This document shows, in pieces, positions 2,782-40,838 of a stretch of 45,318 bases of DNA. Position 1 is the first letter of the stretch; every line of letters begins with the position of its first letter. The notes beneath the pieces were generated by a model, which was not told the origin of the DNA, did not search any database, and saw only the letters and a list, made by a program, of their open reading frames with translations. Made by a program: the position numbers and the translations under genes. The DNA comes from Candidatus Phascolarctobacterium caballi (lineage in GTDB: Bacteria > Bacillota > Negativicutes > Acidaminococcales > Acidaminococcaceae): NCBI GenBank assembly GCA_018065225.1, contig JAGHTS010000213.1, forward strand, positions 1-45,318, in the 5' to 3' direction.

Positions 2782-4344
2782 GTGGGAATTGCAGCGGGAA
2801 TTGATAAAGCAATCGGAGTTATCGCACCGCAAATGGCATTGAAAAGAGTTGTTGCAAGACAACAGATGGCAATATTAAATAGCGGTTACAGCAATTATGG
2901 CGCAAGTACAACGAAAAAGTCACTTGCAGGCTGGCTCCACGCTGGCGGCAGCAGTCGTGAAGATATAGAAAACAATGTGTCAACACTACGCCAGAGAACC
3001 CGTGATTTATATATGGGCGTACCAATAGCAAACGGAGCAGTAAAAACCATGCGGACCAATGTTGTTGGACGTGGGCTGCACTTAAAACCAGATATTGACG
3101 CAGAAGCACTGGGACTATCGCCAGAAGAGAAACAAGCGCTTGAAAAGCAGATAGAAAGAGAATGGAGCATTTGGGCAGAAACGCCAGATTGCGACATGAC
3201 AAGAATTGATAATTTCTATGAGTTACAGCAGTTGGCATTTATTAACTGGCTTGTATCTGGTGACTGTTTGGCGGTTTTGCCAGTAAAAGAAAGAATAAAC
3301 CAGCCGTATGATTTGAGAGTACAGCTGATAGAAGCTGACAGACTATGCAGCCCGGACGAATGCGACACATTAGACGGAACCATTGTGGGCGGTGTTGAAT
3401 GCGACAAAAGCGGCGAAGTAATAGCGTACCATATTGCAAACCACCACCCATTATCATATACCAATACAGATATTAGCTGGCAGAGAGTTGAAGCATACGG
3501 AGCAAAAACGGGCAGAAGAAATGTGCTGCATTTGATGAACCGTGAGCGAATAGGACAACGCAGGGGCGTTCCGTTCCTTGCACCAGTCATTGAAAGTTTG
3601 AAACAGCTTGGAAGATACACTGACGCAGAACTTGTGGCAGCTGTAATTTCTGGTATGTTCACTGTCTTTATTGAAAAGGCAGACGGCAGCAGTGACGACG
3701 CAATAGGTTCAATGATACCAGACGAAGAGCAGGTGGACGCAGACGACGAAACAAGCATTGAACTTGCACCGGGCGCAGTTATCGACTTGAACGAGGGAGA
3801 AAAGGCACACGACACGAACCCCGGACGTCCGAATGCAAATTTTGGCGGCTTTGTGGAAGCTATATGCCAGCAAATAGGCGCTTCACTTGAAATACCGTAT
3901 GAATTGCTTATGAAACGCTTTAACGCCAGTTATTCAGCCAGCAAAGGCGCATTGGAAGAAGCGTGGAAAATGTTTGTAATGTATCGTGATTGGTTAGCAA
4001 CAGACTTTTGCCAGCCAATATATGAAGAGTGGCTGACAGAAGCGGTTGCAAAAAGAAGAATTATTGCACCGGGATATTTTACAGACCCAGCAATAAAAAA
4101 AGCATATAGCAAAGCAAAGTGGAATGGTCCGGCAAGAGGAATGCTTGACCCAGTAAAAGAGGTTACAGCAGCAGAAAAGAGAGTGCAAAACGGTTTTAGC
4201 ACCAGAAGTGATGAAGCAATGCAAATGACGGGCACTGACTTTTACGCAAATGTAGCGCAGTTGAAACATGAAGAAAAAGAAATGAAAGAGGTGAAACAAG
4301 TTGCCAACAGCAGACCAGAACAAACAGCAGCCGCAGCAAAGTAA
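2782..4344 (+). CDS. Portal protein (lambda-type family)
   Basis: GTG start after AAGGAGGTG. N-terminal 'NSGYSNYGASTTKKSLAGWLHAGGSSREDIE..LRQRTRDLY' resembles lambda-family portals. Confidence 0.85.
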   Translation: MGIAAGIDKAIGVIAPQMALKRVVARQQMAILNSGYSNYGASTTKKSLAGWLHAGGSSREDIENNVSTLRQRTRDLYMGVPIANGAVKTMRTNVVGRGLHLKPDIDAEALGLSPEEKQALEKQIEREWSIWAETPDCDMTRIDNFYELQQLAFINWLVSGDCLAVLPVKERINQPYDLRVQLIEADRLCSPDECDTLDGTIVGGVECDKSGEVIAYHIANHHPLSYTNTDISWQRVEAYGAKTGRRNVLHLMNRERIGQRRGVPFLAPVIESLKQLGRYTDAELVAAVISGMFTVFIEKADGSSDDAIGSMIPDEEQVDADDETSIELAPGAVIDLNEGEKAHDTNPGRPNANFGGFVEAICQQIGASLEIPYELLMKRFNASYSASKGALEEAWKMFVMYRDWLATDFCQPIYEEWLTEAVAKRRIIAPGYFTDPAIKKAYSKAKWNGPARGMLDPVKEVTAAEKRVQNGFSTRSDEAMQMTGTDFYANVAQLKHEEKEMKEVKQVANSRPEQTAAAAK

Positions 4345-5485
4345 AGCAAGCGGCAACCCATTTGGAGTGACAGAAAACAAATTCTGGAACTTCATACCAG
4401 CAACGGGGGAGAAACCCCCAGAATTATTGCTCTATGGAGCAATCAGCAGCCAGCAGTCTTGGTGGGAAGATAGAGTGACACCACAGCAGTTCAATCAAGA
4501 ACTTGCAGCGCTTGGAGAGGTGCCAGAAATCATAGTGAGAATTAACAGTGGCGGCGGTGATGTGTTTGCAGCAAATGCAATTTTCACAAGATTAAAGGAC
4601 TGTTCAGCGAAAATCACAGTCAAGATTGATGGTTGGGCAGCGTCGGCAGCCACTATTATTGCAATGGCTGGTGACAGTATAAAGATTGCGAGAAATGGCG
4701 TGTTTATGATACACGACCCGGCAATGACAGTATGGGACACATTCAGAGCAGAAGACTTCTTGAAAATGGCTGATGAACTGAAAGTGATTAAACAATCAAT
4801 CGTAAACACATACGCAATGAAGACTGGAAGACAGACAGAAGACATTGAACAGCTTATGTCAAATGAAACGTGGTGGACGGGCGAAAGCGCAGTTGAAAAC
4901 GGCTTTTGTGATGAATTGATGTTTGAAGAAAGCAGCACAGTTGTTGAAAATTCTTCAAAAATAGTGGTCAATTCGGTGCCTATTGATGTTTCAATGTTCC
5001 AGACAGTACCAAAACAGTTATTAAACAGCCCGCACAATCCGGGTAGTTTGATAAATAGTGCAACAAAACCCATTAACAAGCCAAAAGAAGAAAAGGAGGA
5101 AACAAAGATGGGAGAACCACAGAACAGCATTACTACGGTTGACGCACTAAAAGCCGCATACCCGGATTTAGTAGCGACAATCCAGAAAGAAGCAACAGAC
5201 GCAGAGCGTGCGAGAATTAAAGGTATTAAAGACCTTGCAGGCGGCAACTATGACGCTATCGCAACGGACGCTATGTTTGAACACCCTATCACAGCAGAAC
5301 AAATGGCAGTGAAGATTGTTGCAGAGCAGAACAAGCAGGGTGGAACATACATTGCAGACCGTGCAGCTGACGCAAGCGCTTCTGGTGCAAATGGAGTAGC
5401 TGGAACAGCAGGAGAAGCAGCAAGCGACGGAGAAAAGAACGTGTTTGACGCAGCTATTGACAAGTTGTTTCCAGACGTAGAGTAA
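4301..5485 (+). CDS. Prohead protease (ClpP/S49-like) fused to a C-terminal scaffold-like region
   Basis: TTG start after GAGGTG. 'RINSGGGDVFAANAIFTRLKD..DGWAASAATIIAMAGD..FMIHDP' is ClpP/S49-like. The C-terminal third is Ala/Glu-rich and helical. Confidence 0.75.
   Translation: MPTADQNKQQPQQSKASGNPFGVTENKFWNFIPATGEKPPELLLYGAISSQQSWWEDRVTPQQFNQELAALGEVPEIIVRINSGGGDVFAANAIFTRLKDCSAKITVKIDGWAASAATIIAMAGDSIKIARNGVFMIHDPAMTVWDTFRAEDFLKMADELKVIKQSIVNTYAMKTGRQTEDIEQLMSNETWWTGESAVENGFCDELMFEESSTVVENSSKIVVNSVPIDVSMFQTVPKQLLNSPHNPGSLINSATKPINKPKEEKEETKMGEPQNSITTVDALKAAYPDLVATIQKEATDAERARIKGIKDLAGGNYDAIATDAMFEHPITAEQMAVKIVAEQNKQGGTYIADRAADASASGANGVAGTAGEAASDGEKNVFDAAIDKLFPDVE
5108..5485 (+). CDS. Possible nested in-frame scaffold protein (lambda C/Nu3-style)
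   Basis: In-frame ATG at 5108 lies 7 nt after a strong internal AAGGAGG (5094-5100) within the protease gene. Confidence 0.35.
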   Translation: MGEPQNSITTVDALKAAYPDLVATIQKEATDAERARIKGIKDLAGGNYDAIATDAMFEHPITAEQMAVKIVAEQNKQGGTYIADRAADASASGANGVAGTAGEAASDGEKNVFDAAIDKLFPDVE

Positions 5486-11369: not shown

Positions 11370-14300
11370 TTGGCAGGGTCACAAAAGGAATTTGAACTGC
11401 TTTTTAAGCTGAAAGCGTCGCTGGGTGGTGATTTTAACAGCACATTCAAAAGCGCAATAAACACCAATAACCAGCTGCGGGACAGCTTAAAAAATGTAAA
11501 TTCCCTACAATCAAAAATCGACGGCTACACAAAGCAGTCTGCCGCTATTGACAAGAACAAAGAACGGCTGGCGCAGTTGAATGCTGAACATGACAGATTG
11601 CAGCAGGAGTTACAGCAGACAAGTGAACCAACAGAAGCGCTGCGGCGCAAGTTGGAAAAGAATGAAACCCAGATACAACAGACCACTGCCAAAATTAAAG
11701 AACAAGAACAACAGTTAGACACATACGGACAAGAACTGCGGGAAGCGGGAATAAATACAGATAATCTGGAAGAAGCAAACGGGCGCTTGCAGAGGTCATA
11801 CGATAAATTAAAGACTTCACAACAGACTTTGCAGCAGATAAATGAAAAACAGCAGCAAGTCAACGCCAGCATATCACAGACAAAAGGGCAATTATTGGGA
11901 ACTATCGGAACAATAAGCGCCGTTGCAGCTGCGGTATATGCTGGACCAGTGCAGTCAGCACAAGAGTATGAAACTGCAATGGCAAAGGTGGCAACCATTG
12001 CCGACACGTCGGCGGTTCCATTAGAAGCAATGTCACAACAGATTGTCGCATTGTCAAATCAAACTGGAATTTCAGCCAATGCGATTGCAGATGATGTTTA
12101 CAACGCTATTTCAGCGGGTCAGAACACAGCCGACGCAGTAAATTTTGTAACAAACAGTACAAAACTTGCGAAAGCGGGTTTTGCGGAGAGTTCACAAACA
12201 CTGGACGTACTAACAACCATACTGAACGCCTATGGAATGTCAGCGGATAAAGTAGGTGCGGTATCAGATATGCTGATACAGACCCAGAACAAAGGTAAAG
12301 TCACCGTTGGCGAATTATCAAGCGTTATGGGCAAGGTTATTCCAACAGCCAATTCAAACGGCGTAGCGCTGGAACAATTAACAGCCAGCTACGCAATAAT
12401 GACAAGCAAAGGTATTGCAGCGGCAGAAACAACAACATACTTAAACAGTATGATGAATGAACTTGGAAAGTCTGGAACAAAGACTGACAAGCTGCTGCGG
12501 TCTGCAACTGGAAGCAGTTTCAAAGAATTGATGGCAAGCGGAAAAAGTCTGGGTGATGTACTGCAAATCGTGCAGGACGAAGCAGCAAAAAGCGGACTAT
12601 CAATGGCTGATATGTTCGGAAGCGCAGAAGCCGGAAAAGCAGCAGTAACGTTGCTGTCAAATGGAGTAGACGGCTTTAATTCAAGTGTTCAAGACATGGT
12701 AAACAGCGTTGGTGCAACGAATACAGCGTTTGAAACAATGGACAAGACCACAGAAGCTAAAATGCAGAAAGCAAAGAACAGCATTTCTAATTTAAGCATT
12801 GTACTTGGACAAAACTTGCTGCCGATTGTAGGAAATCTGGCTGACAAGGTAGCAACGCTGGTAACGAAAGTGTCAGAATTTGCGCAGGAAAACCCAAAAG
12901 CCGTGCAAACGGTAATGAAGATGGTTGCAGGCTTTGCAGGGCTTAAAGTGGCAAGTTTGGGAACAAAACTTGGTTTTCTGGAAGCAAAAAAAGGCGTGCT
13001 GGGAATTATGGCAGCCTTTGAAAAATTCAAAGCACTTAAAGCAGCAGAAAGTCTGGGCGGCATAGCAACAAAAGCGGGAGGAATTGCAGTAAAACTGGGA
13101 CCAATCGTGGCAGTTGCAGCAGCAATAGGCGCAGCAATTTACTATGTGGCAAACAACCTTGAAGACGTCCGGGCAAATATACAACAGACATTCGGTGACG
13201 AGGGGTTGAAGATATTTGATGAAGTCTGGGCGTCAATAACAATGGTTGGCGACGCATTCAAGACAGCGTTTGCGGGTGTTTCAACAGATGTATTTTCAAC
13301 ACTTCAACAGATACTACCGACAATTATTTCAACACTAAAAACGGCAGCAACAAGCATATTACCAGTACTGGTACAGCTTGTGACGCAGCTTGCACCGTTG
13401 TTGGCACAATTTATATCAGCAATACTTCCAGTTCTGGGACAGTTGATAACGGCAATCATTCAAATTGCAGGAAATCTGATAACGGCGGTATTGCCTATCA
13501 TAATTGAATTGATAGCGCAGCTAATACCAGTCATAACGCAGATTATATCAGCAATACTTCCAGTGATTATTGAATTGCTCAATACTTTGGTGCCAATAGT
13601 AATGCAGATTATATCAGCAATATTGCCAGTGATTATCGAGTTGCTGAACACATTATTGCCAGTGATAATGCAGATAATTCAAGCGGTGCTGCCAATTATT
13701 ATTGAACTACTAAACCAGCTAATGCCTATTATTCAAATGATAGTGAGTGCAATTTTACCAATGCTGGTGCAGGTGATAAATGCTTTGTTGCCATTGTTCC
13801 AAACAATCATAAGCGCAATTTTGCCAGTGCTAACAACTCTAATAAATGCGCTGGTTCCAGTAATTCAAGTTTTGGCGTCTGTTTTGTCGTCGGTGCTTGG
13901 TGGAGCGCTTACAACGATAACAAATATCGTTCAAAGCGTAATGACGGTATTTCAAGGCTTGATTGACTTTATAACTGGTGTATTTACTGGTAATTGGTCG
14001 CAGGCTTGGAATGGAATAAAAGAAATTTTCTCCGGCGCAGTAAGCGGGCTTGGCGAGATTATAAAAGCGCCTTTGCGTGCGGTTGTTTCCGCAGTGAATG
14101 GTGTTATATCTGGACTTAATCAATTAAAGGTTCCAGACTGGGTGCCGGGCATTGGAGGAAAAGGCATAAACATTCCGTTGATACCGGGATTTGCAAAAGG
14201 TACATTATCAACACCAGATACGTTCATTGCTGGTGAGAATGGACCAGAGTTAATAACAAACGCACCGGGGCGCACGGTGTTTACAGCTGACCAGACCAGA

Positions 14301-14594
14301 AATATTATGGCAGCACAAAACATGGCTGCGACAGCGCCAACAGTAGCAGCAGGACAAGCAACAGCCGCACAAACCGTGAATACAACAGCGCCAGAGGTTA
14401 CACCGGGAGCAGGAAGCGGAAATGGCGGCACAAATAACTTTACCATCAATAACAATCCAACAATCGTAATTGAGGGCGACAAGCCGGAAGACTTGGACGC
14501 AAAGCTGGAAGAGAACAACCAGCGCTTGTTACGTGAAATGGAAGATTTGATGGACCAGAAAAAAGACAAGGAGGAGCGGCAGCGGTATGACTAA
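11370..14594 (+). CDS. Tape measure protein
   Basis: 1074 aa, TTG start after GGGAGGTG. Coiled-coil N-terminus, hydrophobic repeat core, position after the chaperone. Confidence 0.9.
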   Translation: MAGSQKEFELLFKLKASLGGDFNSTFKSAINTNNQLRDSLKNVNSLQSKIDGYTKQSAAIDKNKERLAQLNAEHDRLQQELQQTSEPTEALRRKLEKNETQIQQTTAKIKEQEQQLDTYGQELREAGINTDNLEEANGRLQRSYDKLKTSQQTLQQINEKQQQVNASISQTKGQLLGTIGTISAVAAAVYAGPVQSAQEYETAMAKVATIADTSAVPLEAMSQQIVALSNQTGISANAIADDVYNAISAGQNTADAVNFVTNSTKLAKAGFAESSQTLDVLTTILNAYGMSADKVGAVSDMLIQTQNKGKVTVGELSSVMGKVIPTANSNGVALEQLTASYAIMTSKGIAAAETTTYLNSMMNELGKSGTKTDKLLRSATGSSFKELMASGKSLGDVLQIVQDEAAKSGLSMADMFGSAEAGKAAVTLLSNGVDGFNSSVQDMVNSVGATNTAFETMDKTTEAKMQKAKNSISNLSIVLGQNLLPIVGNLADKVATLVTKVSEFAQENPKAVQTVMKMVAGFAGLKVASLGTKLGFLEAKKGVLGIMAAFEKFKALKAAESLGGIATKAGGIAVKLGPIVAVAAAIGAAIYYVANNLEDVRANIQQTFGDEGLKIFDEVWASITMVGDAFKTAFAGVSTDVFSTLQQILPTIISTLKTAATSILPVLVQLVTQLAPLLAQFISAILPVLGQLITAIIQIAGNLITAVLPIIIELIAQLIPVITQIISAILPVIIELLNTLVPIVMQIISAILPVIIELLNTLLPVIMQIIQAVLPIIIELLNQLMPIIQMIVSAILPMLVQVINALLPLFQTIISAILPVLTTLINALVPVIQVLASVLSSVLGGALTTITNIVQSVMTVFQGLIDFITGVFTGNWSQAWNGIKEIFSGAVSGLGEIIKAPLRAVVSAVNGVISGLNQLKVPDWVPGIGGKGINIPLIPGFAKGTLSTPDTFIAGENGPELITNAPGRTVFTADQTRNIMAAQNMAATAPTVAAGQATAAQTVNTTAPEVTPGAGSGNGGTNNFTINNNPTIVIEGDKPEDLDAKLEENNQRLLREMEDLMDQKKDKEERQRYD
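13411..13870 (+). repeat. 66-bp (22-aa, 11-aa sub-period) tandem repeats inside the tape measure gene
   Basis: 'atatcagcaatacttccagt' recurs at 13414 and 13545, and a variant ('atatcagcaatattgccagt') at 13611. Protein units 'ISAILPVIIELLNTLVPIVMQI' repeat about 7 times with drift. Confidence 0.75.
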
Positions 14595-14803: not shown

Positions 14804-16102
14804 ATGAGTGATAAGAACATGGCACGCAGAGTTGAACTGCGGTTGAAGTTTCAAAATGTCAAGGTTCCAGCTGATATAAACAAATATTTAAGCAGTCTGA
14901 CTTTCACTGATGAAGAAGAAGACAACGCAGACGACTTACAGATTGCGTTTGATGATAGAGAAAGAAAATGGCTTGGAAGCTGGCTGGAAGTAAAACCAAC
15001 AGTAATAAAAACAACAGTGCAGGTAAACAAGCAGGTTGAAGCAGAAAAAGTGGAAAATTACGTGGTCAAAAAAGGCGACACGCTTTGGGCTATTGCTGCA
15101 AAGTATCTTGGAAGCGGCACGAAATATCCACAAATTGCACAAGAAAATAACATAAAGAACCCCAATTTGATTTATCCGGGGCAAGTATTAAAAATAACAG
15201 CCGGAGGAACGGCAACACAGACGGTAACAGAAACAAAAGAGAGTACGCAAAAAGTATCAGACCCAAAATTGATAACAGCAACTATTGTTCAGAAGAATTG
15301 GCACGACAACGGAAAAGACGCAGTGCTTGACTGCGGAACGTTTGAACTGGACAGCATAGACGCAAGCGGACCGCCTACAAAAATAACATTAAAAGGCACG
15401 TCAATTCCGTACACGTCAACAATGAGAACGTGCAAGAAGTCAAGAGCGTGGGAAAATACAACATTGCAGGTTATAGCAGAACAGCTGGCAAAAGAAAGCG
15501 CACTGAAATTGATGTACCTTGCAAGTAAAAACCCAACATACAAGCGAAAAGAGCAGGTGCAGAAGTCGGATATTGCATTTCTTCAAAAACTATGCAAGGC
15601 GTCTGGACTTGCCTTGAAAGTAACAACGCTTGCAGTGGTTATTTACGACGCAGAAGAATACGACAAAAAGCCAGCTATTAAGACTATAAAATACGGCAGC
15701 GGTGATTATTTATCATTTAAGCTGGGAACCAGTCTGCATGATACAGCATACACAAGTTGTCATGTATCATACACAGACCCAGACAGCAAAGAAACTATTG
15801 AAAGTACATACACACCAGACAGCAAAGAGGGAACCGGGCAAGTGCTTGAAGTCAACGAAAAGGTAACAAGTACGCAGGAAGCATACGAACTGGCAAAAAA
15901 GAGATTGAGAGAAAAGAACACACAGCAGTTTACAGCAAGTTTTACAATGCTTGGCGACGTGCAGCTGGTAGCAGGTGCGACGGTAAAATTAAAGGGCTTT
16001 CAAGAGTTCGACAGAAAATACAAGATAACAAAGGCAACACACAAGCTGACGGGAGGATATACAACAGCTATTGAATTAAAACAGATATTGGAGGGCTATT
16101 GA
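14804..16102 (+). CDS. Tail/baseplate hub protein (P2 gpD / XkdQ-like) with an inserted LysM motif
   Basis: 432 aa after the gpX-like gene. LysM 'YVVKKGDTLWAIAAKYLGSGTKYPQIAQENNIKNPNLIYPGQVLKI'. Confidence 0.6.
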   Translation: MSDKNMARRVELRLKFQNVKVPADINKYLSSLTFTDEEEDNADDLQIAFDDRERKWLGSWLEVKPTVIKTTVQVNKQVEAEKVENYVVKKGDTLWAIAAKYLGSGTKYPQIAQENNIKNPNLIYPGQVLKITAGGTATQTVTETKESTQKVSDPKLITATIVQKNWHDNGKDAVLDCGTFELDSIDASGPPTKITLKGTSIPYTSTMRTCKKSRAWENTTLQVIAEQLAKESALKLMYLASKNPTYKRKEQVQKSDIAFLQKLCKASGLALKVTTLAVVIYDAEEYDKKPAIKTIKYGSGDYLSFKLGTSLHDTAYTSCHVSYTDPDSKETIESTYTPDSKEGTGQVLEVNEKVTSTQEAYELAKKRLREKNTQQFTASFTMLGDVQLVAGATVKLKGFQEFDRKYKITKATHKLTGGYTTAIELKQILEGY

Positions 16103-20681: not shown

Positions 20682-21722
20682 ATGTCTAATTTTGATGATT
20701 TAGCAATGGCGGTAGCGTCCTTTGGAGGAAACAACGCCGTAAAGTTTGATGATTTGGGTATGCCATCAATTATGGTGGGTATTCCTAAAATGAAGTATTC
20801 TGACCTTATCACCGGGGGCACACAAGAAACATTGCCTTGGTGGATTGTTGATGGAGTAGAAAAGGAAGTTATCTGGGTATCAAAATACATTAACTGCGTT
20901 GTAAACGACAGAGCGTATTCGTTGCCTATGAAAGACCCTAAATGCTATATCAATTTTGACCAAGCATTAGCAGCTTGTAGAAAGAAAGGCGCTGGCTGGC
21001 ACTTAAACCAGAACGGCGTATTTGCAGCAATCAACCTTTGGTGCCAGCGTAACGGCTTTATCCCAAGAGGTAACACAAACTGGGACAGAAGCTATGTAAA
21101 GGCATACGAAAAGGGTATCAACACATACATTGACGGTTCGCACGGCGGCGGTAGAACTGCAACTGGTTCTGGTCCTATGACATGGAACCACGACGGAACA
21201 CCAGCGGGAATTGCTGACCTTTGCGGCAACTGCTGGGAGTGGGTAGCTGGTATGCGTATCAAAAATGGTGAAATTCAGATTATCCCATACGGTAACAGCA
21301 TGAAGTCAGATTGCGACATGAGCGACGCAAGCACAGAATGGAAAGCAATCAAGCCGGACGGTTCACTTGTGGCACCGGGAACAGCAGGAACACTGCATTA
21401 TGATTATGTTTCCGGCAAAATCGTTATCAACACAAGCACAAGCGCAACCGCAAGTTGGAATACACCTTTTGGAAATGTGGCAGCAGCAAGTGGCGTAACA
21501 ATTCCACAGATTGCAGTTGCAGCTGGTTTGATTAAGGATAGCGCAGACAACTACGGCACAAGCGGTCACCAGCAGTATGTCAATACTGACGGTGAGCGTC
21601 TGCCTCTCCGGGGTTCGAGCTTCAGCGGCACTTCCAGCGGTGGTGGCGCTGCGTTGCTCTTGCACCACGGGCGTACTCTCAGCAACAGCTACGTTTCGTT
21701 CCGCTCCGCTTTATATGAGTAA
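20682..21722 (+). CDS. DGR target protein, FGE-sulfatase/C-type-lectin-fold receptor-binding candidate
   Basis: 'AGIADLCGNCWEWVAGM' is a GN[VC]WEW-type FGE/CLec motif. The C-terminal 37 codons are the variable repeat. It sits at the distal end of the tail-fibre block. Confidence 0.85.
   Translation: MSNFDDLAMAVASFGGNNAVKFDDLGMPSIMVGIPKMKYSDLITGGTQETLPWWIVDGVEKEVIWVSKYINCVVNDRAYSLPMKDPKCYINFDQALAACRKKGAGWHLNQNGVFAAINLWCQRNGFIPRGNTNWDRSYVKAYEKGINTYIDGSHGGGRTATGSGPMTWNHDGTPAGIADLCGNCWEWVAGMRIKNGEIQIIPYGNSMKSDCDMSDASTEWKAIKPDGSLVAPGTAGTLHYDYVSGKIVINTSTSATASWNTPFGNVAAASGVTIPQIAVAAGLIKDSADNYGTSGHQQYVNTDGERLPLRGSSFSGTSSGGGAALLLHHGRTLSNSYVSFRSALYE
21601..21711 (+). repeat. DGR variable repeat (VR)
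   Basis: Gap-free 111-bp alignment to 22317-22427 (offset 716) with 14 mismatches, each opposite an A in the TR. VR ends 11 nt before the stop codon. Confidence 0.9.
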
Positions 21723-21748
21723 CTGGGAACTGGGCACAGATAAACTGC

Positions 21749-21770
21749 GGGGATTGCGGCAGCAATCCCC
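21749..21770 (+). promoter_or_regulatory. Perfect 9-bp stem / 4-nt loop hairpin downstream of VR (DGR target-recognition-type element)
   Basis: 'ggggattgc' - 'ggca' - 'gcaatcccc', 38 nt after the VR end. No T-run follows, so it is not a terminator. Confidence 0.6.
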
Positions 21771-21802
21771 ATATAAAAATATTGTGAAAAGGTGGTTGAA
21801 AT

Positions 21803-22252
21803 ATGCCAGAAGATACAGCAGAACAGTTGCCCAAGCTGGATAATGTGTGCGACAATGCAACACCAGAAGACTTCAAAATGAAAAACAAAGTCTATGAGTT
21901 GCTAAAGTATGCAGGACCACAGCTGGAAGAGTTTCCACGGGCAAAACGTGAACTTGCCAGAAAAATTGATGAAACAATGCTGGAAGTGTTGCGCTTGGTG
22001 GTAACGCTGGAAAATAAGCACTATAAGAAAACCACGCTTGGTGACTTGGACAATGAACTTGACGTGCTGCGGCACCTTGTCAGATTGGCGGCAGACGCAG
22101 ACTACACAAGAAGCAAGAAACCATGTTTGCCAATCAAGAAATATGAAATGATGGCAAGATACATCAATGAAATAGGGAACATGATTGGTGGATATTATAA
22201 GTCACTGAATGGCAGCCCGCAGAGTAGCGGAAACAATGCCAAAAAGAAATGA
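21803..22252 (+). CDS. avd: Accessory variability determinant (Avd-like helical bundle)
   Basis: 149 aa, basic and helical. Motif 'YELLKY..FPRAKRELARKIDETMLEVLRLVV..LDVLRHLVRLA'. Lies between target and TR. ATG follows AAGGTGG. Confidence 0.7.
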   Translation: MPEDTAEQLPKLDNVCDNATPEDFKMKNKVYELLKYAGPQLEEFPRAKRELARKIDETMLEVLRLVVTLENKHYKKTTLGDLDNELDVLRHLVRLAADADYTRSKKPCLPIKKYEMMARYINEIGNMIGGYYKSLNGSPQSSGNNAKKK

Positions 22253-22254
22253 TA

Positions 22255-22279
22255 AAAAGCAGGGTAAAACCTGCTTTTT
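22255..22279 (+). terminator. Intrinsic terminator between avd and TR
   Basis: 'aaaagcagg' - 'gtaaaa' - 'cctgctttt' followed by a T-run. Confidence 0.6.
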
Positions 22280-22316
22280 GTATTTGGGGAATAAGCCGTT
22301 AATAGAGGACTTGCCG

Positions 22317-22427
22317 TGCCTATCCGGGGTTCGAGCTTCAACAACACTTCCAACGGTGGTGGCGCTGCGTTGAACTTGAACAACGAGCGTACTAACAGCA
22401 ACAACAACGTTTCGTTCCGCTCCGCTT
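22317..22427 (+). repeat. DGR template repeat (TR)
   Basis: Non-coding copy of VR with 26 adenines. Read in the VR frame it holds 10 AAC codons plus ATC and GAG. Confidence 0.9.
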
Positions 22428-22692
22428 CACCCCATTTTGCCAGTAGTCGTGCCCATACGTGGACACGTCCAGTGCGCTTGGGTTAAAGGGGCTTATTTCC
22501 ATTCCAAAGGGGGACCAGAACAGCTGGGAACCGTAGGAAAAAGATTGAATTGCCGTAACGATAGTTAGTAAGTAGCAAAGCTGCTGAAAGTCAGTACCGG
22601 GAAACTGAATGTATATATCACGTTTGGACTGCGTAGACCCGCAGTTTGATTTGTACGGCGCTTATTTTGGTTAGTTAAGGAGGGAAAAGCAA
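22317..22692 (+). ncRNA. Putative DGR template RNA (TR plus 265-nt spacer up to the RT start)
   Basis: No plausible ORF. Several local stems, e.g. 'actgcg'..'cgcagt'. Position matches the TR-spacer RNA of characterised DGRs. Confidence 0.4.
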
Positions 22693-23790
22693 ATGCAGAC
22701 AATAAAAAATATTTTCCCCATGATATATGACTTTGAAAATCTGTTCAATGCTTATAAAGCCGGGATAAAGTGCAAAAGATACCGGGAAGACGTAATGCGT
22801 TATACGGATAAGCTGGAAGAAAACTTGATTGAGTTGCAAAACGAACTTATCTGGAAAACCTACACAGTAGGGAGATACAACATATTTTATGTGTACGAAC
22901 CTAAAAAGCGCATGATTATGTCATTGCAGTTCAAAGATAGAGTGGCACAGCACGCCATATATAGGCAGCTGAACCCGTATTTTGAAAAGCAGTTTATACA
23001 TGACAGCTACGCTTGCAGAGTGGGAAAAGGGACGCACAAAGCAGTCAACCGCTTGCATAATTGGTTGAAGCAGACTGACAGAAAACCGCAACGCTATTAT
23101 TACTTAAAGCTGGACGTATCAAAGTATTTTTACAGAATAGACCATGAAATTTTGATGAATATTTTGCGGAAAAAGATTGCTGATGAAGATTTGTTGCACG
23201 TCTTGTCAGTGATTATAAACTGCGAAGAAACAAAATTTGGTCTTCCAATGGGTGCAGACATTGGGGACGTGGCGTTTGATGAATTGCTGGGAGAAGTTGG
23301 GCTGCCTATTGGCAATTTGACTTCACAAATGTTCGCAAATCTATACTTGAACGAACTTGACCAGTTCTGCAAACACAAATTGCACCTGCATTATTACATA
23401 CGCTATATGGACGACATAATAATACTGCATAAAGACAAAAAGTACCTTGAAAAAGTAAAAAGGAAAATTGCAGAGTTTCTGGAAAGTGAACTGCATTTGC
23501 AGCTAAACAAAAAGACTTGCATTAGACCAACCAGCATGGGCATTGAGTTTGTGGGCTTCCGTATCTGGTCAACACATATAAAGTTGCGTAAGAAGACAGC
23601 AAAGAAGCTGAAAAGACGCTTGCAATATATGTTTGCAGCGTATGCAGCGGGAGAAATTGACAAAGATACACTGGATAGGTCAGTTGCTTCATATCGTGGA
23701 ATTTTGAAGCATTTTAACAGTTACGGTCTGCGCCAAAGCCTTAACGAAATTTATGTAAAGGAGGTGACGCAGAATGGAACAGAGTTTTGA
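22693..23790 (+). CDS. DGR reverse transcriptase
   Basis: ATG after TAAGGAGGG. 'YIRYMDDIIIL' (YMDD) and 'LPIGNLTSQMFANLYLNELD' (DGR-type GxxxSQ motif). 365 aa with no maturase or endonuclease domains. Confidence 0.9.
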   Translation: MQTIKNIFPMIYDFENLFNAYKAGIKCKRYREDVMRYTDKLEENLIELQNELIWKTYTVGRYNIFYVYEPKKRMIMSLQFKDRVAQHAIYRQLNPYFEKQFIHDSYACRVGKGTHKAVNRLHNWLKQTDRKPQRYYYLKLDVSKYFYRIDHEILMNILRKKIADEDLLHVLSVIINCEETKFGLPMGADIGDVAFDELLGEVGLPIGNLTSQMFANLYLNELDQFCKHKLHLHYYIRYMDDIIILHKDKKYLEKVKRKIAEFLESELHLQLNKKTCIRPTSMGIEFVGFRIWSTHIKLRKKTAKKLKRRLQYMFAAYAAGEIDKDTLDRSVASYRGILKHFNSYGLRQSLNEIYVKEVTQNGTEF

Positions 23791-24037
23791 AAGAGAAGTG
23801 CTTGACAGATTAAAGACAATCGAAATCAAACTTGACGGCTACGGGGACGTAAAAGCCAAAGTCTATGAGAATGAGCGCAAAATACTTTTGCACGAAAGCG
23901 AAATCAAAGACATACGGCAGGACTTTGAAAAGCAGCAAGAAGAAACACGCTGGCTGAAAAGAACAGTAATTGCAGCAATAATTACCGGGCTTATTGGCAT
24001 TCTTGTTGCGTTTTTAAGGGTTGGAATTGGAGTATAG
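23774..24037 (+). CDS. XhlA-like lysis-associated membrane protein
   Basis: 87 aa with a coiled-coil N-half and one C-terminal TM segment 'VIAAIITGLIGILVAFL'. Overlaps the RT gene end by 17 nt. Confidence 0.5.
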   Translation: MEQSFEREVLDRLKTIEIKLDGYGDVKAKVYENERKILLHESEIKDIRQDFEKQQEETRWLKRTVIAAIITGLIGILVAFLRVGIGV

Positions 24038-24051
24038 GAGGAAAAGGCGAA

Positions 24052-24435
24052 ATGAAATACTTATTGTTTTTCGTTATCGGCTTTCTGGCAGCATTCACAC
24101 TGTTTGTGATATATAACCTGCCTGCATTAAGGCTGAAACGAAAGAAGAGAAAAGAAGAATTGGAAAAGAACCCAGACAGAAAAACCAGCGCAACAAAGAT
24201 TGTGTTGTTTTCTATACTTTTAACCTACTACATAGCATTTGCGGTGGGTGTATGGGCTGTATTGACACAAGACGTGTACCAGCTGTCAGTATTACTGACA
24301 TTTGTTGGAGGGGTGACAGCTGCGGCAGTGGCTTTCTATTGCTGGAAAGCAAAAGCGGAAAATCTATTGAAAATTAAAGCTGCACACCCGGACTTATGCG
24401 GCTCATTGTCTGATTTTTCCAATATGTCACAGTAA
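24052..24435 (+). CDS. Multi-pass membrane protein (holin-like)
   Basis: 127 aa with about 3-4 hydrophobic segments, immediately upstream of the endolysin. Confidence 0.5.
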   Translation: MKYLLFFVIGFLAAFTLFVIYNLPALRLKRKKRKEELEKNPDRKTSATKIVLFSILLTYYIAFAVGVWAVLTQDVYQLSVLLTFVGGVTAAAVAFYCWKAKAENLLKIKAAHPDLCGSLSDFSNMSQ

Positions 24436-24453
24436 TGACGGGAGGTGCAAGAA

Positions 24454-25929
24454 ATGGCATTGAACGGAAATACAAACGAAGAAAAGATTTGGAATTTTCT
24501 AAAATCAAAAGGGCTTAACAGCTTTGCTGTTGCAGGATTGATGGGCAACTTATTTGCGGAAAGTGGATTGAACCCAAAGAACCTGCAAAACAGCTATGAA
24601 AAGAAACTGGGACACACTGACGAAACATACACGGCGGCGGTTGATAGCGGGAAATATAAAAACTTCAAAAGCGACGCCGCCGGATATGGTCTGGCGCAGT
24701 GGACATACGGCACAAGGAAAGCGGCACTGCTGGAATACGCAAAAAGCGGTGGAAAGTCGGTGGGCGACCTTGAAATGCAGCTGGGGTTCCTTATGAAAGA
24801 ATTGACGGGCAATTATGCAGGCGTTTTAGCTGAAATAAAAAAAGCAACAAGCGTTTTGCAGGCTTCAAATACAGTATTGATGAAATTTGAACGCCCGGCA
24901 GACCAGAGCGAAGCTGTACAGAAGAAGCGTGCTGCGTATGGTCAAACATATTATGACAAGTACGCAGCTGCAAAAAACAATACACAGAATGGAGGTACAA
25001 GCAATATGAATGTATCAGAAGTTAGAAAGAAGTTTGCAGCAATTGCAACAAAGTACAAGGGCGTGAAAGAGGGAAGCGCCCAGCACCACGCAATCATTGA
25101 CAAGTACAATGCGCACAAGCCACTTGCAAGAGGGTACAAAGTAACCTATACGGACGCTTGGTGCGCCACATTTGCTTCTATGGTTGCCATTGAAGCTGGT
25201 TACACAGATATTATACCTACTGAATGCGGCTGCAATGCACAGATTGCATTATGGCAGAAGATGGGCAGATGGTGCGAGAATGACGCAAAGGTGCCAGAAC
25301 CGGGCGACTATATTTATTATGACTGGGACGACAACGGAAATGGAGATTGCACGGGTGGTTCGGAACACGTTGGAATTGTAACAGCCGTAAACGGCAATAC
25401 AATTACAGTAACAGAGGGCAACAAGTCAAACGCAGTAGGCGACAGAACATTGCAGGTCAACGGGCGCTATATCAGAGGTTACGGCGTGCCGGACTTCTCA
25501 AAGAAAGCAACTGCGGACAAGCCAAAGCAGGAAGAGCAGAAGCCGGACGACAACACAGAATTTGCACTGGGCGAAGTGGTAATGTTCAACGGCAATACAC
25601 ATTACACAAGCGCAAATGCAACAGACGGCAAAAGCTGCAAGCCGGGTAAAGCAAAGGTAACACAGAAATATAACGGCAAACACCCTTATCATGTAGTTAG
25701 AGAGGGCGGCGACGGTGGCAGCGTTTGTGGCTGGGTAAATGCTTCTGATTTATCACACATCAACAGCGCAGCGGAAAGAACATACACAGTCAAGAGCGGT
25801 GACAGCCTTTGGGCTATTGCAGCAAAGCAGCTGGGCGACGGTTCCAGATACAATGAAATTAAGACTATGAATGGTCTTTCAAGTAACACAATTTACGCAG
25901 GGCAGGTATTGAAATTGCCTACAAAATAA
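24454..25929 (+). CDS. Multidomain endolysin (lysozyme-like + CHAP/NlpC + SH3-like + LysM)
   Basis: ATG 24454 after GGGAGG. 'AGLMGNLFAESGLNP..YGLAQWT' is lysozyme-like. 'DAWCATF..EHVGIV' gives a Cys/His peptidase. C-terminal LysM 'YTVKSGDSLWAIAAKQLGDGSRYNEIKTMNGL'. Confidence 0.85.
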   Translation: MALNGNTNEEKIWNFLKSKGLNSFAVAGLMGNLFAESGLNPKNLQNSYEKKLGHTDETYTAAVDSGKYKNFKSDAAGYGLAQWTYGTRKAALLEYAKSGGKSVGDLEMQLGFLMKELTGNYAGVLAEIKKATSVLQASNTVLMKFERPADQSEAVQKKRAAYGQTYYDKYAAAKNNTQNGGTSNMNVSEVRKKFAAIATKYKGVKEGSAQHHAIIDKYNAHKPLARGYKVTYTDAWCATFASMVAIEAGYTDIIPTECGCNAQIALWQKMGRWCENDAKVPEPGDYIYYDWDDNGNGDCTGGSEHVGIVTAVNGNTITVTEGNKSNAVGDRTLQVNGRYIRGYGVPDFSKKATADKPKQEEQKPDDNTEFALGEVVMFNGNTHYTSANATDGKSCKPGKAKVTQKYNGKHPYHVVREGGDGGSVCGWVNASDLSHINSAAERTYTVKSGDSLWAIAAKQLGDGSRYNEIKTMNGLSSNTIYAGQVLKLPTK

Positions 25930-27232: not shown

Positions 27233-27286
27233 GGTTGTTACCTCCCGGATATATGAATTATTGTTGTTGCTCTTGTAACTGTCTTT

Positions 27287-27315
27287 ATTATATACTTGCG
27301 CAAGTATAAAGTCAA
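27287..27315 (-). promoter_or_regulatory. Sigma-70-type promoter TTGACT-17-TATAAT with a palindromic operator in the spacer
   Basis: On the minus strand: -35 TTGACT (27310-27315), 17-nt spacer 'ttatacttgcgcaagta', -10 TATAAT (27287-27292). Nearly identical to 40451-40479. Confidence 0.6.
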
Positions 27316-27399
27316 GAAGAATACAGCAGAAATATTGCACAAATATACTTGCGTAAGATAACAAAATAATTGTGCAATATATATACTTGCGCAAGGGAT
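27291..27399. promoter_or_regulatory. Operator array: three TATACTTGCGCAAGTATA-type palindromes plus an inverted pair of AATATTGCACAA
   Basis: Perfect 18-bp palindrome at 27291-27308 and degenerate copies at 27344-27360 and 27382-27399. 'atattgcacaa' (27332-27342) is inverted at 27370-27380. Confidence 0.6.
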
Positions 27400-35884: not shown

Positions 35885-36466
35885 ATGGACAAGATACAAC
35901 GTGAGAAGATAGCTGAAAAGCTAAAAAAGATTAAAGCGCTTGCAGAACGTGGCGTGGGCGGTGAAAAAGAAACCGCAATGAGAATGTATGAGGAATTAAA
36001 AGCCAGATATGAAATTGAAGACGAAGAAATAATGCTGGACGCAGTGACACTTCACTGGTTTTCGTTTTCAACACAGCAAGAAAAAGCATTGTTGCACCAA
36101 ATATTCTACATGGTCACTGCTGACCCGTCATATCACCATTATACGGGCAAGTACAGCAGAAGAAAGAAACTGGGGCATGATTGCACAGAGATTGAAGCGG
36201 CAGAAATAACACTGCTATACAATTTCTATAAAGCAGAATTAGAAAGAGAGTATGAAGCGTTCTGGATAGCTTTTAAGTGCGGGAACAATCTTTATCCAGA
36301 TAAAAACGCCCGCTGCTACAAAGAAGACGAAGAAGAAAGACCAGCGCCGGAAAGAAGCGACGAAGAAAAACGCATGATGAAAAAAGCGGCGTGGTATTCA
36401 GAAATGATGGACAAAAGGAAACCACCACGGGCTTTGCTGGGAGGAGCGGAGGTGGAAGAAGACTGA
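35885..36466 (+). CDS. DUF2786-like N-terminal domain protein
   Basis: 'KIAEKLKKIKALAERGVGGEKETAMRMYEELKARYEI'. Paralogous N-terminus to the next gene. Confidence 0.5.
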   Translation: MDKIQREKIAEKLKKIKALAERGVGGEKETAMRMYEELKARYEIEDEEIMLDAVTLHWFSFSTQQEKALLHQIFYMVTADPSYHHYTGKYSRRKKLGHDCTEIEAAEITLLYNFYKAELEREYEAFWIAFKCGNNLYPDKNARCYKEDEEERPAPERSDEEKRMMKKAAWYSEMMDKRKPPRALLGGAEVEED

Positions 36467-36855
36467 TGGAAGAAAAGCAGAAAATCATTGAAAAGCTGGT
36501 GAAGATAAAAGCGCTTGCGGAACGTGGTGTGGGTGGCGAAAAGGTCACAGCCTTGCAGATGTATGAAGCATTAAAGAGAAAATACGGCATATCTGATGAA
36601 GAGGTGCAGCAGGCAGAAGCGGTGCCAGTGGATATAAACAAAATTGACCTAAAACGATACTGGGGGCTTGCATTCCAACTGGCAACAATAGCGGCAAGCC
36701 TGCAAGAAGAAATGGACTTTTGCAACAAATGCCCATACACCCACACAGAGGATTGCGGGGAATGTAGCACGCATTGGAATATAAGGGATATACAGCTTGA
36801 ATTTGAAACGGCACAACAACGACTTGCGAAAGCAGCAATGGAGGTAAAGGCATAA
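36466..36855 (+). CDS. DUF2786-like N-terminal domain protein (paralogue)
   Basis: ATG 36466 overlaps the upstream stop (TGATG). 'KIIEKLVKIKALAERGVGGEKVTALQMYEALKRKYGI'. Confidence 0.5.
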   Translation: MEEKQKIIEKLVKIKALAERGVGGEKVTALQMYEALKRKYGISDEEVQQAEAVPVDINKIDLKRYWGLAFQLATIAASLQEEMDFCNKCPYTHTEDCGECSTHWNIRDIQLEFETAQQRLAKAAMEVKA

Positions 36856-40376: not shown

Positions 40377-40475
40377 ACAACTTGCGCAAGTATAAATATT
40401 GCACAAAGAATGTCTATACTTGCGCAACTATATTTGTGTATTATTACATATTGAAATTATACTTGCGCAAGTATA
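40377..40475. promoter_or_regulatory. Second operator array: three TATACTTGCGCAAGTATA-type palindromes plus AATATTGCACAAA
   Basis: 40377-40394 (half degenerate), 40415-40432 (one mismatch) and 40458-40475 (perfect). 'aatattgcacaaa' at 40395-40407 is identical to 27331-27343. Confidence 0.6.
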
Positions 40476-40479
40476 TAAT
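40451..40479 (+). promoter_or_regulatory. Sigma-70-type promoter TTGAAA-17-TATAAT with a palindromic operator in the spacer
   Basis: The spacer 'ttatacttgcgcaagta' is identical to the minus-strand promoter at 27287-27315. The identity continues through 'aaagacagtta'. Confidence 0.6.
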
Positions 40480-40520
40480 AAAGACAGTTAGAACAGCAAA
40501 GCAATATGGAGGTACACGAA

Positions 40521-40766
40521 ATGGAAAAAACATATTTTGAAGAAATCAAGTTAAGGTTTATCAAAGCTGCAATGTGGACGAATGACAATGCAAAAGACGG
40601 CGACGTGAACAGAAACCATGTAAATTATGGTTGCTGCACCTGCTGGGCACAAGTGCTGCAAGATATGGGACACGAAACAAAAGTGCCAGTATGGGAAGAT
40701 AACGGCTGCTTGAAAATTCCATTTATCGAAATAGATGGACAAAAAGTGCTTGAATTTGAAAAATAG
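40521..40766 (+). CDS. Hypothetical protein
   Basis: ATG 40521 after GGAGG; 81 aa. Its stop codon overlaps the first base of the tRNA. Confidence 0.45.
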   Translation: MEKTYFEEIKLRFIKAAMWTNDNAKDGDVNRNHVNYGCCTCWAQVLQDMGHETKVPVWEDNGCLKIPFIEIDGQKVLEFEK

Positions 40767-40838
40767 CACGGTTGGCGCAATGGATAGCGCAGCAGCTTCC
40801 GAAGCTGACGGCTGCGGGTTCAAGTCCCGCACCGTGCA
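40766..40838 (+). tRNA. tRNA-Arg (anticodon CCG)
   Basis: Hand-folded cloverleaf. Acceptor GCACGGT/ACCGTGC, D stem GCGC/GCGC, anticodon stem with 4 of 5 pairs and loop TTCCGAA, 5-nt variable loop. T stem GCGGG/CCCGC with TTCAAGT loop, discriminator A. No encoded CCA. Confidence 0.85.

Follow-up and report, generated by a model that had tools for sequence, protein, structure and literature searches.

The stretch of DNA analysed here (hereafter the window) comprises positions 1 to 45,318 of contig JAGHTS010000213.1, from the assembly GCA_018065225.1 of Candidatus Phascolarctobacterium caballi. Judged by its genes, it is the whole 45-kb genome of a myovirus-like temperate phage. This phage carries in its tail module, all on the plus strand, the parts of what is very probably a diversity-generating retroelement (DGR): a target gene that ends in a variable repeat (VR), a four-unit ACTG array, a GC-rich hairpin, an avd gene, a template repeat (TR), a structured spacer and a reverse transcriptase (RT) gene.

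The VR (21601-21711, + strand) is the 3′ end of the target gene, where it encodes residues 307-343 of 346, and the TR (22317-22427, + strand) is an adenine-rich copy of it in the intergenic region between avd and the RT gene. Compared base by base at a constant offset of 716 nt, the two repeats are identical at 97 of 111 positions and differ at 14, with no gaps, and the similarity breaks off sharply at both ends. All 14 mismatches stand opposite TR adenines (six A to G, five A to C, three A to T). The TR contains 26 A, 33 C, 26 G and 26 T; were 14 mismatches scattered over it at random, all of them would fall on adenines with a probability of 4.6e-11 (hypergeometric, C(26,14)/C(111,14)). The initial annotation of this locus had counted the same identities and mismatches by hand, and had placed every mismatch on a TR adenine (14 of 26) and none on C, G or T; our computed alignment and the tabulation by TR base agree with it, and neither a gap nor a mismatch at a non-adenine position appeared. 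An independent repeat search recovered the same pair as its family D3. The TR is overlapped only by mechanical open reading frames (ORFs), and 266 nt separate its end from the start of the RT gene. The substituted share of TR adenines (54%) can be set beside the ~52% misincorporation by bRT-Avd, the RT-Avd complex of phage BPP-1, in vitro, and would at least be in line with homing in the fairly recent past.

Read in the target frame, the TR encodes (V)PIRGSSFNNTSNGGGAALNLNNERTNSNNNVSFRSA, which includes ten AAC codons, one ATC and one GAG. Translation of both repeats shows that 11 of these 12 codons are changed in the VR, as had been annotated. The TR holds further adenine-containing codons, two AGC and two ACT, all of which are unmutated in the VR. 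A translation check showed that stop codons are unreachable from any A-containing TR codon, which bears out the earlier remark that AAC codons can diversify without creating stops. The theoretical ceiling is 15^10 x 4^6 = 2.4e15 peptides, encoded by up to 4^26 = 4.5e15 DNA sequences. The figure of about 9e12 peptides given at first was too low, as it omitted the two AGC and two ACT codons.

Both repeats end in an A-free block (21692-21711, + strand, in the VR), which is identical in VR and TR, and directly after which the two flanks diverge completely. It is 20 nt long with 60% G+C, compared with 43% for the window, and a search of the window at up to 3 mismatches found the VR and TR copies only. 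The initial annotation had described the last 21 nt (21691-21711) as identical, G/C-rich and similar to the boundary formed by an initiation of mutagenic homing (IMH) site. The identity and the composition hold, but the first of these 21 nt is an unmutated A, and the A-free stretch is one nucleotide shorter. The comparison with an IMH, which in DGRs starts with a GC-rich segment and differs from the IMH* at the TR end, can be taken only part of the way: an A-free 3′ block does end both repeats and would serve as the boundary of mutagenesis, but such a block alone cannot separate recipient from donor. Because it is the same in both repeats, the information that distinguishes the recipient from the donor must lie downstream, in the ACTG array and the hairpin. 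Wu et al. noted cases with identical VR and TR 3′ ends, and inferred that recognition extends downstream.

The ACTG array (21722-21747, + strand) begins at the stop codon of the target gene (TAA, 21720-21722) and ends before the hairpin. Its units lie at 21722, 21729, 21736 (a degenerate ACAG) and 21744, with a spacing of 7, 7 and 8 nt. Of 15 distinct VR flanks in the family described below, 14 keep four units at this spacing, and the array is retained both where the flank is non-coding (primary targets) and where it is coding (paralogous second targets, EDWKLVTEIL). To count arrays more widely, we compiled 99 distinct ones from fetched loci, most of which came from a scan of viral contigs for the ACTG pattern and some from DGR-directed searches. 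Among the matches listed and the DGR loci taken together, 83 of these 99 lie behind a VR that ends in TCCGCTT, and for 78 a hairpin with a GRNA loop follows as well. The bare ACTG pattern occurs in at least 120 stretches of IMG/VR, against a chance expectation of a few tens by a back-of-envelope estimate. We found no description of the array in the DGR literature searched, and it is the sole feature of the locus that might add to DGR biology. We tentatively suggest that the array could be this clade's functional equivalent of the part of the IMH that discriminates VR from TR, for example by offering a row of binding sites for RT-Avd or for a host factor, though we consider this idea doubtful. 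Pairing of the ACTG flank with the DGR RNA, on either strand, was considered and rejected: RNAduplex energies fell within the range of shuffles, and the sites were inconsistent over seven elements.

Beyond the array lies a GC-rich hairpin or cruciform (21749-21770, + strand; DNA fold), in which a perfect 9-bp stem, GGGGATTGC/GCAATCCCC, encloses the 4-nt loop GGCA, which is of the GRNA type. The stems of the relatives differ in sequence yet still pair, which is to say that they covary, and their loops read GGCA, GGTA, GACA, GATA, GAAA or GAGA. No comparable hairpin was found 3′ of the TR. Guo et al. described a GRNA hairpin as needed for efficient retrohoming of BPP-1 and as conserved in phage DGRs; the reported hairpins have GC stems of 7-10 bp, a GRNA loop and a distance of 4-34 bp from the VR (PMC3240598). 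The alternative that the hairpin is a terminator of the target gene was rejected: on the plus strand it is followed by ATATAAAAAT, with no T-run, and it was flagged as a terminator on the minus strand only, where no gene ends. We prefer a DGR cruciform to a terminator because the GRNA loop and the covariation fit it better.

The target gene (20682-21722, + strand) encodes 346 aa and matches PHROG 2889 (E=9.5e-115). Although it has no match in Pfam or NCBIfam, a phmmer search of the PDB aligned its residues 5-331 with residues 11-370 of 5VF4 (E=5.5e-55). This structure is TaqVP, the DGR variable protein of Thermus aquaticus, which has a C-type lectin (CLec) fold of the formylglycine-generating enzyme (FGE) type and a VR at residues 341-374 of 381 (PMC6328139). 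The VR residues of the window's protein, 307-343, align with the VR region of TaqVP. On this homology, the target is predicted to adopt an FGE-type CLec fold that displays the VR; DGR targets carry their VR on such a CLec fold or on an Ig-like one. Its gene sits immediately downstream of the baseplate and tail genes, and from this position the protein is presumably the distal, receptor-binding component of the tail.

The avd gene (accessory variability determinant; 21803-22252, + strand) encodes 149 aa, which match Pfam bAvd at 71.5 bits (cut-off 40) and the NCBIfam equivalog NF033474 (DivGenRetAVD) at 85.3 bits (cut-off 80). The PHROG family that it matches, 3206, is labelled 'Avd protein of DGR'. 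An Avd is found in most DGRs, though not in all. The RT gene (22693-23790, + strand) encodes 365 aa that match Pfam RVT_1 and PHROG 1423 (E=1.2e-140), and its best match in the PDB is chain A of 8UB7 (328 aa), with E=5e-50 versus 7e-20 for group II intron RTs. A text search tied no paper to this code; we take the chain to be bRT because its residue numbering (K29, F66, R74, I76, D138, I181, G182, Q187 and YMDD at 213-216) matches that of bRT in the BPP-1 papers. The window's RT has IGNLTSQ at aa 206-212 and YMDD at aa 238-241, and the signature of DGR RTs is [I/V/L]GxxxSQ instead of QGxxxSP (PMC7826257), together with a YxDD catalytic box. Residues K28, F65, R73, I75 and D141 align with K29, F66, R74, I76 and D138 of bRT, and R73 and I206 are the counterparts of R74 and I181, two residues of bRT shown to promote adenine mutagenesis. 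We rejected the possibilities of a group II intron, retron or Drt RT on the basis of profile scores far below their cut-offs (TIGR04416, 130.6 bits versus 300; retron, 57 versus 235; Drt3a, 61 versus 200). No intron or retron RNA was detected in the window with Rfam at gathering thresholds, where a tRNA was the sole match; Rfam has no curated DGR RNA family.

We then considered the RNA that would contain the TR. A single-sequence fold of the TR-spacer RNA was no better than those of shuffles (z = -0.18), and structure is visible through covariation only. The covariation set consisted of the region from the avd stop to the RT start in the window and six relatives (seven sequences), from whose RNAalifold consensus we took a subset of five helices. 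In this set, the share of paired cells is 99.6%, and compensatory double changes occur at 14 of the 34 pairs. The observed values were not attained in any of 500 column shuffles, and helices slid out of register were only 33-45% paired. One of these helices is a long-range duplex of 12 bp between 22286-22297 and 22490-22501 (both + strand), the latter being nt 63-74 of the spacer. It has five covarying pairs, is paired in 98.8% of cells, and loops out the whole TR. A stem-loop follows 19-42 nt 3′ of the TR (22446-22469, + strand), with eight pairs, bulges and a UACG tetraloop; three of its pairs covary, and it is 100% paired in the seven sequences. The remaining helices, also marked by covariation, lie further along the spacer (22551-22660, + strand) and pair 22551-22557 with 22654-22660, 22572-22574 with 22582-22584, and 22591-22594 with 22605-22608.

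A cryo-electron microscopy study of the BPP-1 ribonucleoprotein described a 'cPRT Stop' duplex between avd 369-379 and spacer 59-70, and predicted this duplex together with a class of tetraloop stem-loops in 207 of 278 Avd-containing DGRs (bioRxiv 10.1101/2023.10.23.563531). By their kind and position, the TR-bracketing duplex and the stem-loop of the window correspond to these BPP-1 elements, and the stem-loop resembles the putative 'Avd-binding stem-loop' class of DGR RNAs. Between the avd stop and the TR there is also a terminator-like hairpin (22254-22279, + strand; AAAAAGCAGG-GTAAAA-CCTGCTTTTT), which is kept in all relatives of the alignment, and after which the upstream strand of the duplex comes.

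To place the element among its relatives, we searched both catalogued phages and contig collections. The nearest catalogued phage is Clostridium phage Saumur (ON453901), an inducible prophage of Enterocloster clostridioformis YL32. A family-specific pattern search of IMG/VR returned 17 stretches, and a protein-guided search added relatives in an Oscillospiraceae metagenome-assembled genome (MAG), in Otoolea muris (a related prophage is carried by DSM 111138) and in a Lachnospiraceae MAG. Another relative is an 85-kb scaffold with a prophage flanked by bacterial genes. Across 15 VR-TR pairs of this family, 187 of 190 mismatches fall on TR adenines. Two contigs, L012 and L014, are identical over the TR and the 600 nt upstream of the VR, yet differ at 15 VR positions. 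At the protein level, the target belongs to a cluster of 148 proteins at 90% identity, and in a subgroup of nine of these, 6 of 306 N-terminal columns vary compared with 18 of 40 VR columns, at the positions of TR A-codons. This hypervariation of the relatives' VRs shows that the DGR lineage is demonstrably diversifying in nature.

Several relatives (L002/L009, L006/L018, L003, L004, L016 and L017, where L002 and L009 are one contig, as are L006 and L018) encode a second target with its own VR, ~32% identical to the primary one. The VRs of these second targets match the common TR, and each has its own ACTG array and hairpin and a short C-terminal extension, ...LYLEDWKLVTEIL.... The relatives with a second target include the IMG/VR contig whose cassette is identical to that of Saumur. 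Two PHROG 2889 proteins are likewise encoded next to Avd and RT in C. clostridioforme LM41 phi3. The window has neither a second target nor a second VR. A tblastn search of it with the relatives' paralogous second targets matched the primary target gene only, and when both strands were scanned for the 85 non-adenine TR positions, only the VR and TR matched at all 85, the next best site reaching 43 of 85. The remote VR-like copies for which the initial annotation suggested a search were thus absent from the window.

Two further observations on these relatives concern annotation and assembly. In the Saumur record (ON453901, our L001), the TR region at 4061-4405 is annotated as two hypothetical coding sequences (CDSs), and homologous target genes are annotated elsewhere as 'formylglycine-generating sulfatase / host metabolism' (PMC11318856); both are probably misannotated DGR parts. 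In addition, the VR is a place where independent assemblies are interrupted: the first base of the Logan contig L019 falls within it (21676), and contig L022 from the Oscillospiraceae MAG stops at target residue 308, where the VR starts. Such breaks are what population heterogeneity at the VR would give, although we regard them as only a hint.

Taken together, a DGR-type RT, an Avd, a CLec target, a non-coding TR, a GRNA hairpin and a TR RNA structure all lie adjacent to one another around the repeat pair, in keeping with the reading of it as a DGR VR and TR in the initial annotation. We are highly confident that the two repeats are the recipient and donor of a complete, probably functional DGR that belongs to the tail module of this temperate, myovirus-like phage. 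From the BPP-1 paradigm, we infer how such an element would work. The avd-TR-spacer region would be transcribed, and the RNA would fold such that the duplex of 22286-22297 with 22490-22501 brackets the TR and the stem-loop at 22446-22469 stands just downstream of it. The RT-Avd complex would then bind this RNA and reverse transcribe the TR from a cis primer, with misincorporation opposite adenines only and a stop at the bracketing duplex. The adenine-mutagenised cDNA would replace the VR at 21601-21711, with the A-free block at 21692-21711 setting the 3′ limit of mutagenesis and the downstream flank, that is, the ACTG array and the GRNA hairpin at 21749-21770, marking the recipient. The predicted outcome is a TaqVP-like protein whose ligand-binding face could take up to ~2e15 forms. 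To judge indirectly from its relatives, the window's own copy may be currently active as well.

Several observations weigh against this interpretation, in whole or in part. With the 3′ block being identical, an IMH and an IMH* are indistinguishable inside the repeat. The hairpin lies 37 nt from the VR, just beyond the reported range of 4-34 nt, and the third ACTG unit is degenerate in the window alone, the array being otherwise invariant. By inspection, we found no convincing contiguous pairing that would form a template:primer duplex like that of BPP-1 (Sp47-56 with TR117-129) and provide a priming site. The terminator-like hairpin separates avd from the TR, and a sequence scan flagged no sigma-70-like promoter after it. 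Finally, we looked for a second isolate of the exact element with a different VR, scanning viral, genome and metagenome contig collections with an A-to-N degenerate TR pattern (111 nt or 74 nt) and a VR-flank pattern, and did not find one. The only other contig with an identical RT, the 3-kb Logan contig L019, matches the window at 100% from 21676 to 24748, including the VR-specific bases, the TR and the RT, and is thus identical to the window's VR where it covers it; SRR10505694 contains such an identical contig.

Some of these observations would also be expected if the DGR were a decayed fossil, in which the repeat pair records past mutagenic homing by an element that no longer diversifies. 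The lack of a sibling genome with an alternative VR in the three contig collections is in line with this, as are the ACAG unit peculiar to the window and the unmutated adenines of all the AGC and ACT codons. Against decay, however, the ORFs of the RT, Avd and target are intact and retain their catalytic and signature residues, and neither the hairpin nor any covarying RNA helix is disrupted in the window. Further, a long-inactive pair would have gathered some non-adenine differences, and there are none, while close relatives are clearly active. We therefore regard a fossil as improbable. Much more improbable still is a simple segmental duplication in which the gene's 3′ end was copied and then diverged by random mutation or gene conversion with no reverse transcription. 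It would account for a 111-nt direct repeat whose copies lie 716 nt apart, but is effectively refuted by the base-specific pattern: one copy has A at 23% of positions, and these hold all 14 differences (P=4.6e-11). The same pattern recurs in the 15 related pairs (187 of 190 mismatches), and the copy rich in adenine is non-coding, with an Avd gene on one side and a DGR-type RT gene on the other. A false VR produced by a chimeric or collapsed repeat in the assembly, which the tendency of assemblies to break at the VR (L019 at 21676, L022 at residue 308) might suggest, is just as hard to credit given that L019 reproduces 21676-24748 exactly with its VR-specific bases, TR and RT, that the VR is in frame and changed at A sites only, and that independently assembled relatives have the same architecture.

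The locus can be compared with several known systems. Like the BPP-1 DGR (mtd-avd-TR-brt), it has the gene order target, avd, TR, RT, and its VR forms the 3′ end of a gene for a (presumed) receptor-binding protein of the tail. The two also share adenine-only differences, an AAC-rich TR, an Avd, an RT with [I/V/L]GxxxSQ and YMDD, and a GC-rich hairpin with a GRNA loop after the VR, as well as a duplex that brackets the TR, with a downstream strand beginning ~60 nt inside the spacer, and a tetraloop stem-loop just 3′ of the TR. There are differences too. The upstream strand of the duplex lies inside avd in BPP-1, whereas in the window it is intergenic between avd and the TR, after the terminator-like hairpin. 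The IMH of BPP-1 differs from its IMH*, whereas the 3′ block here is the same in both repeats; the window has an array of four ACTG units between the VR and the hairpin; and its RT has 365 aa compared with 328 in BPP-1.

The variable proteins point to a different set of comparisons. TaqVP (5VF4) is a clear full-length homologue of the target, with its VR at the same C-terminal position and an FGE-type CLec fold, but it belongs to the chromosomal DGR of a thermophile, whereas the window's target is part of a phage tail module of gut Clostridia. The DGRs of Treponema denticola (TvpA) and Legionella likewise combine FGE-type CLec variable proteins with adenine mutagenesis (PMC6328139). Those proteins are cellular surface lipoproteins, some with remote targets, in contrast to the single adjacent target of the window, a protein of the phage structural module.

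The closest likeness is to the lineage of Saumur, which shares 76% DNA identity over the TR, spacer and RT, has VR/TR differences at adenines only, and shows an identical gene order of baseplate J, P2_I, small ORFs, target, avd, TR, RT, holin and endolysin. Saumur, the related IMG/VR contigs and LM41 phi3 belong with the window to the same lineage, with the same TR design and the same VR flank of ACTG array and hairpin. The window differs from the Saumur-like contig and several relatives in having a single target rather than a second, paralogous one, and its TR encodes ...NNERTNS... where those of the relatives encode ...NN(A/P)RS.... By each defining feature that could be tested, the window's element belongs to the DGR family, and GenBank (Saumur) and IMG/VR already contain its lineage. 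Nor is it new in kind, because DGRs that act on phage tail proteins have been recognised since BPP-1 and gut viromes are rich in them.

The DGR predicts that the phage can re-target its receptor-binding protein, which would allow host-range switches and would be relevant to the dynamics of gut Clostridia. The analysis also annotates the full cassette of an uncultivated temperate phage, from target, VR and hairpin through avd, TR and structured spacer to RT. Because homologues of the target and TRs of this kind carry other annotations (sulfatase, hypothetical CDSs), a correct DGR annotation is of some practical value.

The remainder of the window gives the genomic context of the cassette. The phage is a temperate phage of gut Clostridia, with hosts of the Lachnospiraceae/Oscillospiraceae type. 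Its genes begin with the small and large terminase, followed by the portal, protease, major head protein, sheath, tape measure, baseplate J and P2-I genes. After P2-I come the DGR cassette, an XhlA-type holin, an endolysin, a serine integrase (- strand), a repressor, a replication initiator and a methyltransferase.

In the course of this analysis, we noted several other features of the phage genome. The palindrome TATACTTGCGCAAGTATA occurs in several copies in two regions 13 kb apart, at 27267-27398 and 40377-40499, in inverted orientation. Exact copies lie at 27291 and 40458, variants at 40377 and 40415, and others were seen by eye near 27345 and 27383, against a chance expectation of 0.02. 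These clusters look like operator arrays for a phage regulator, in two divergent control regions that flank the lysogeny/replication module. A phage-encoded tRNA-Arg(CCG) lies at 40766-40838 (Rfam 64.9 bits, and also found by ARAGORN). The tape measure gene (11370-14594) contains three tandem 66-nt (22-codon) repeats at 13527-13724 that are 67-80% identical. A 124-nt direct repeat (35904-36027 and 36479-36602; 70% identity, 575 nt apart) in or near the ORFs at 35885-36466 and 36391-36855 is possibly a duplicated domain or gene. Lastly, a 62-nt direct repeat with 73% identity (15065-15126 and 25789-25850) is LysM-domain coding sequence, with one copy in a tail protein (14804-16102) and the other in the endolysin (24445-25929).

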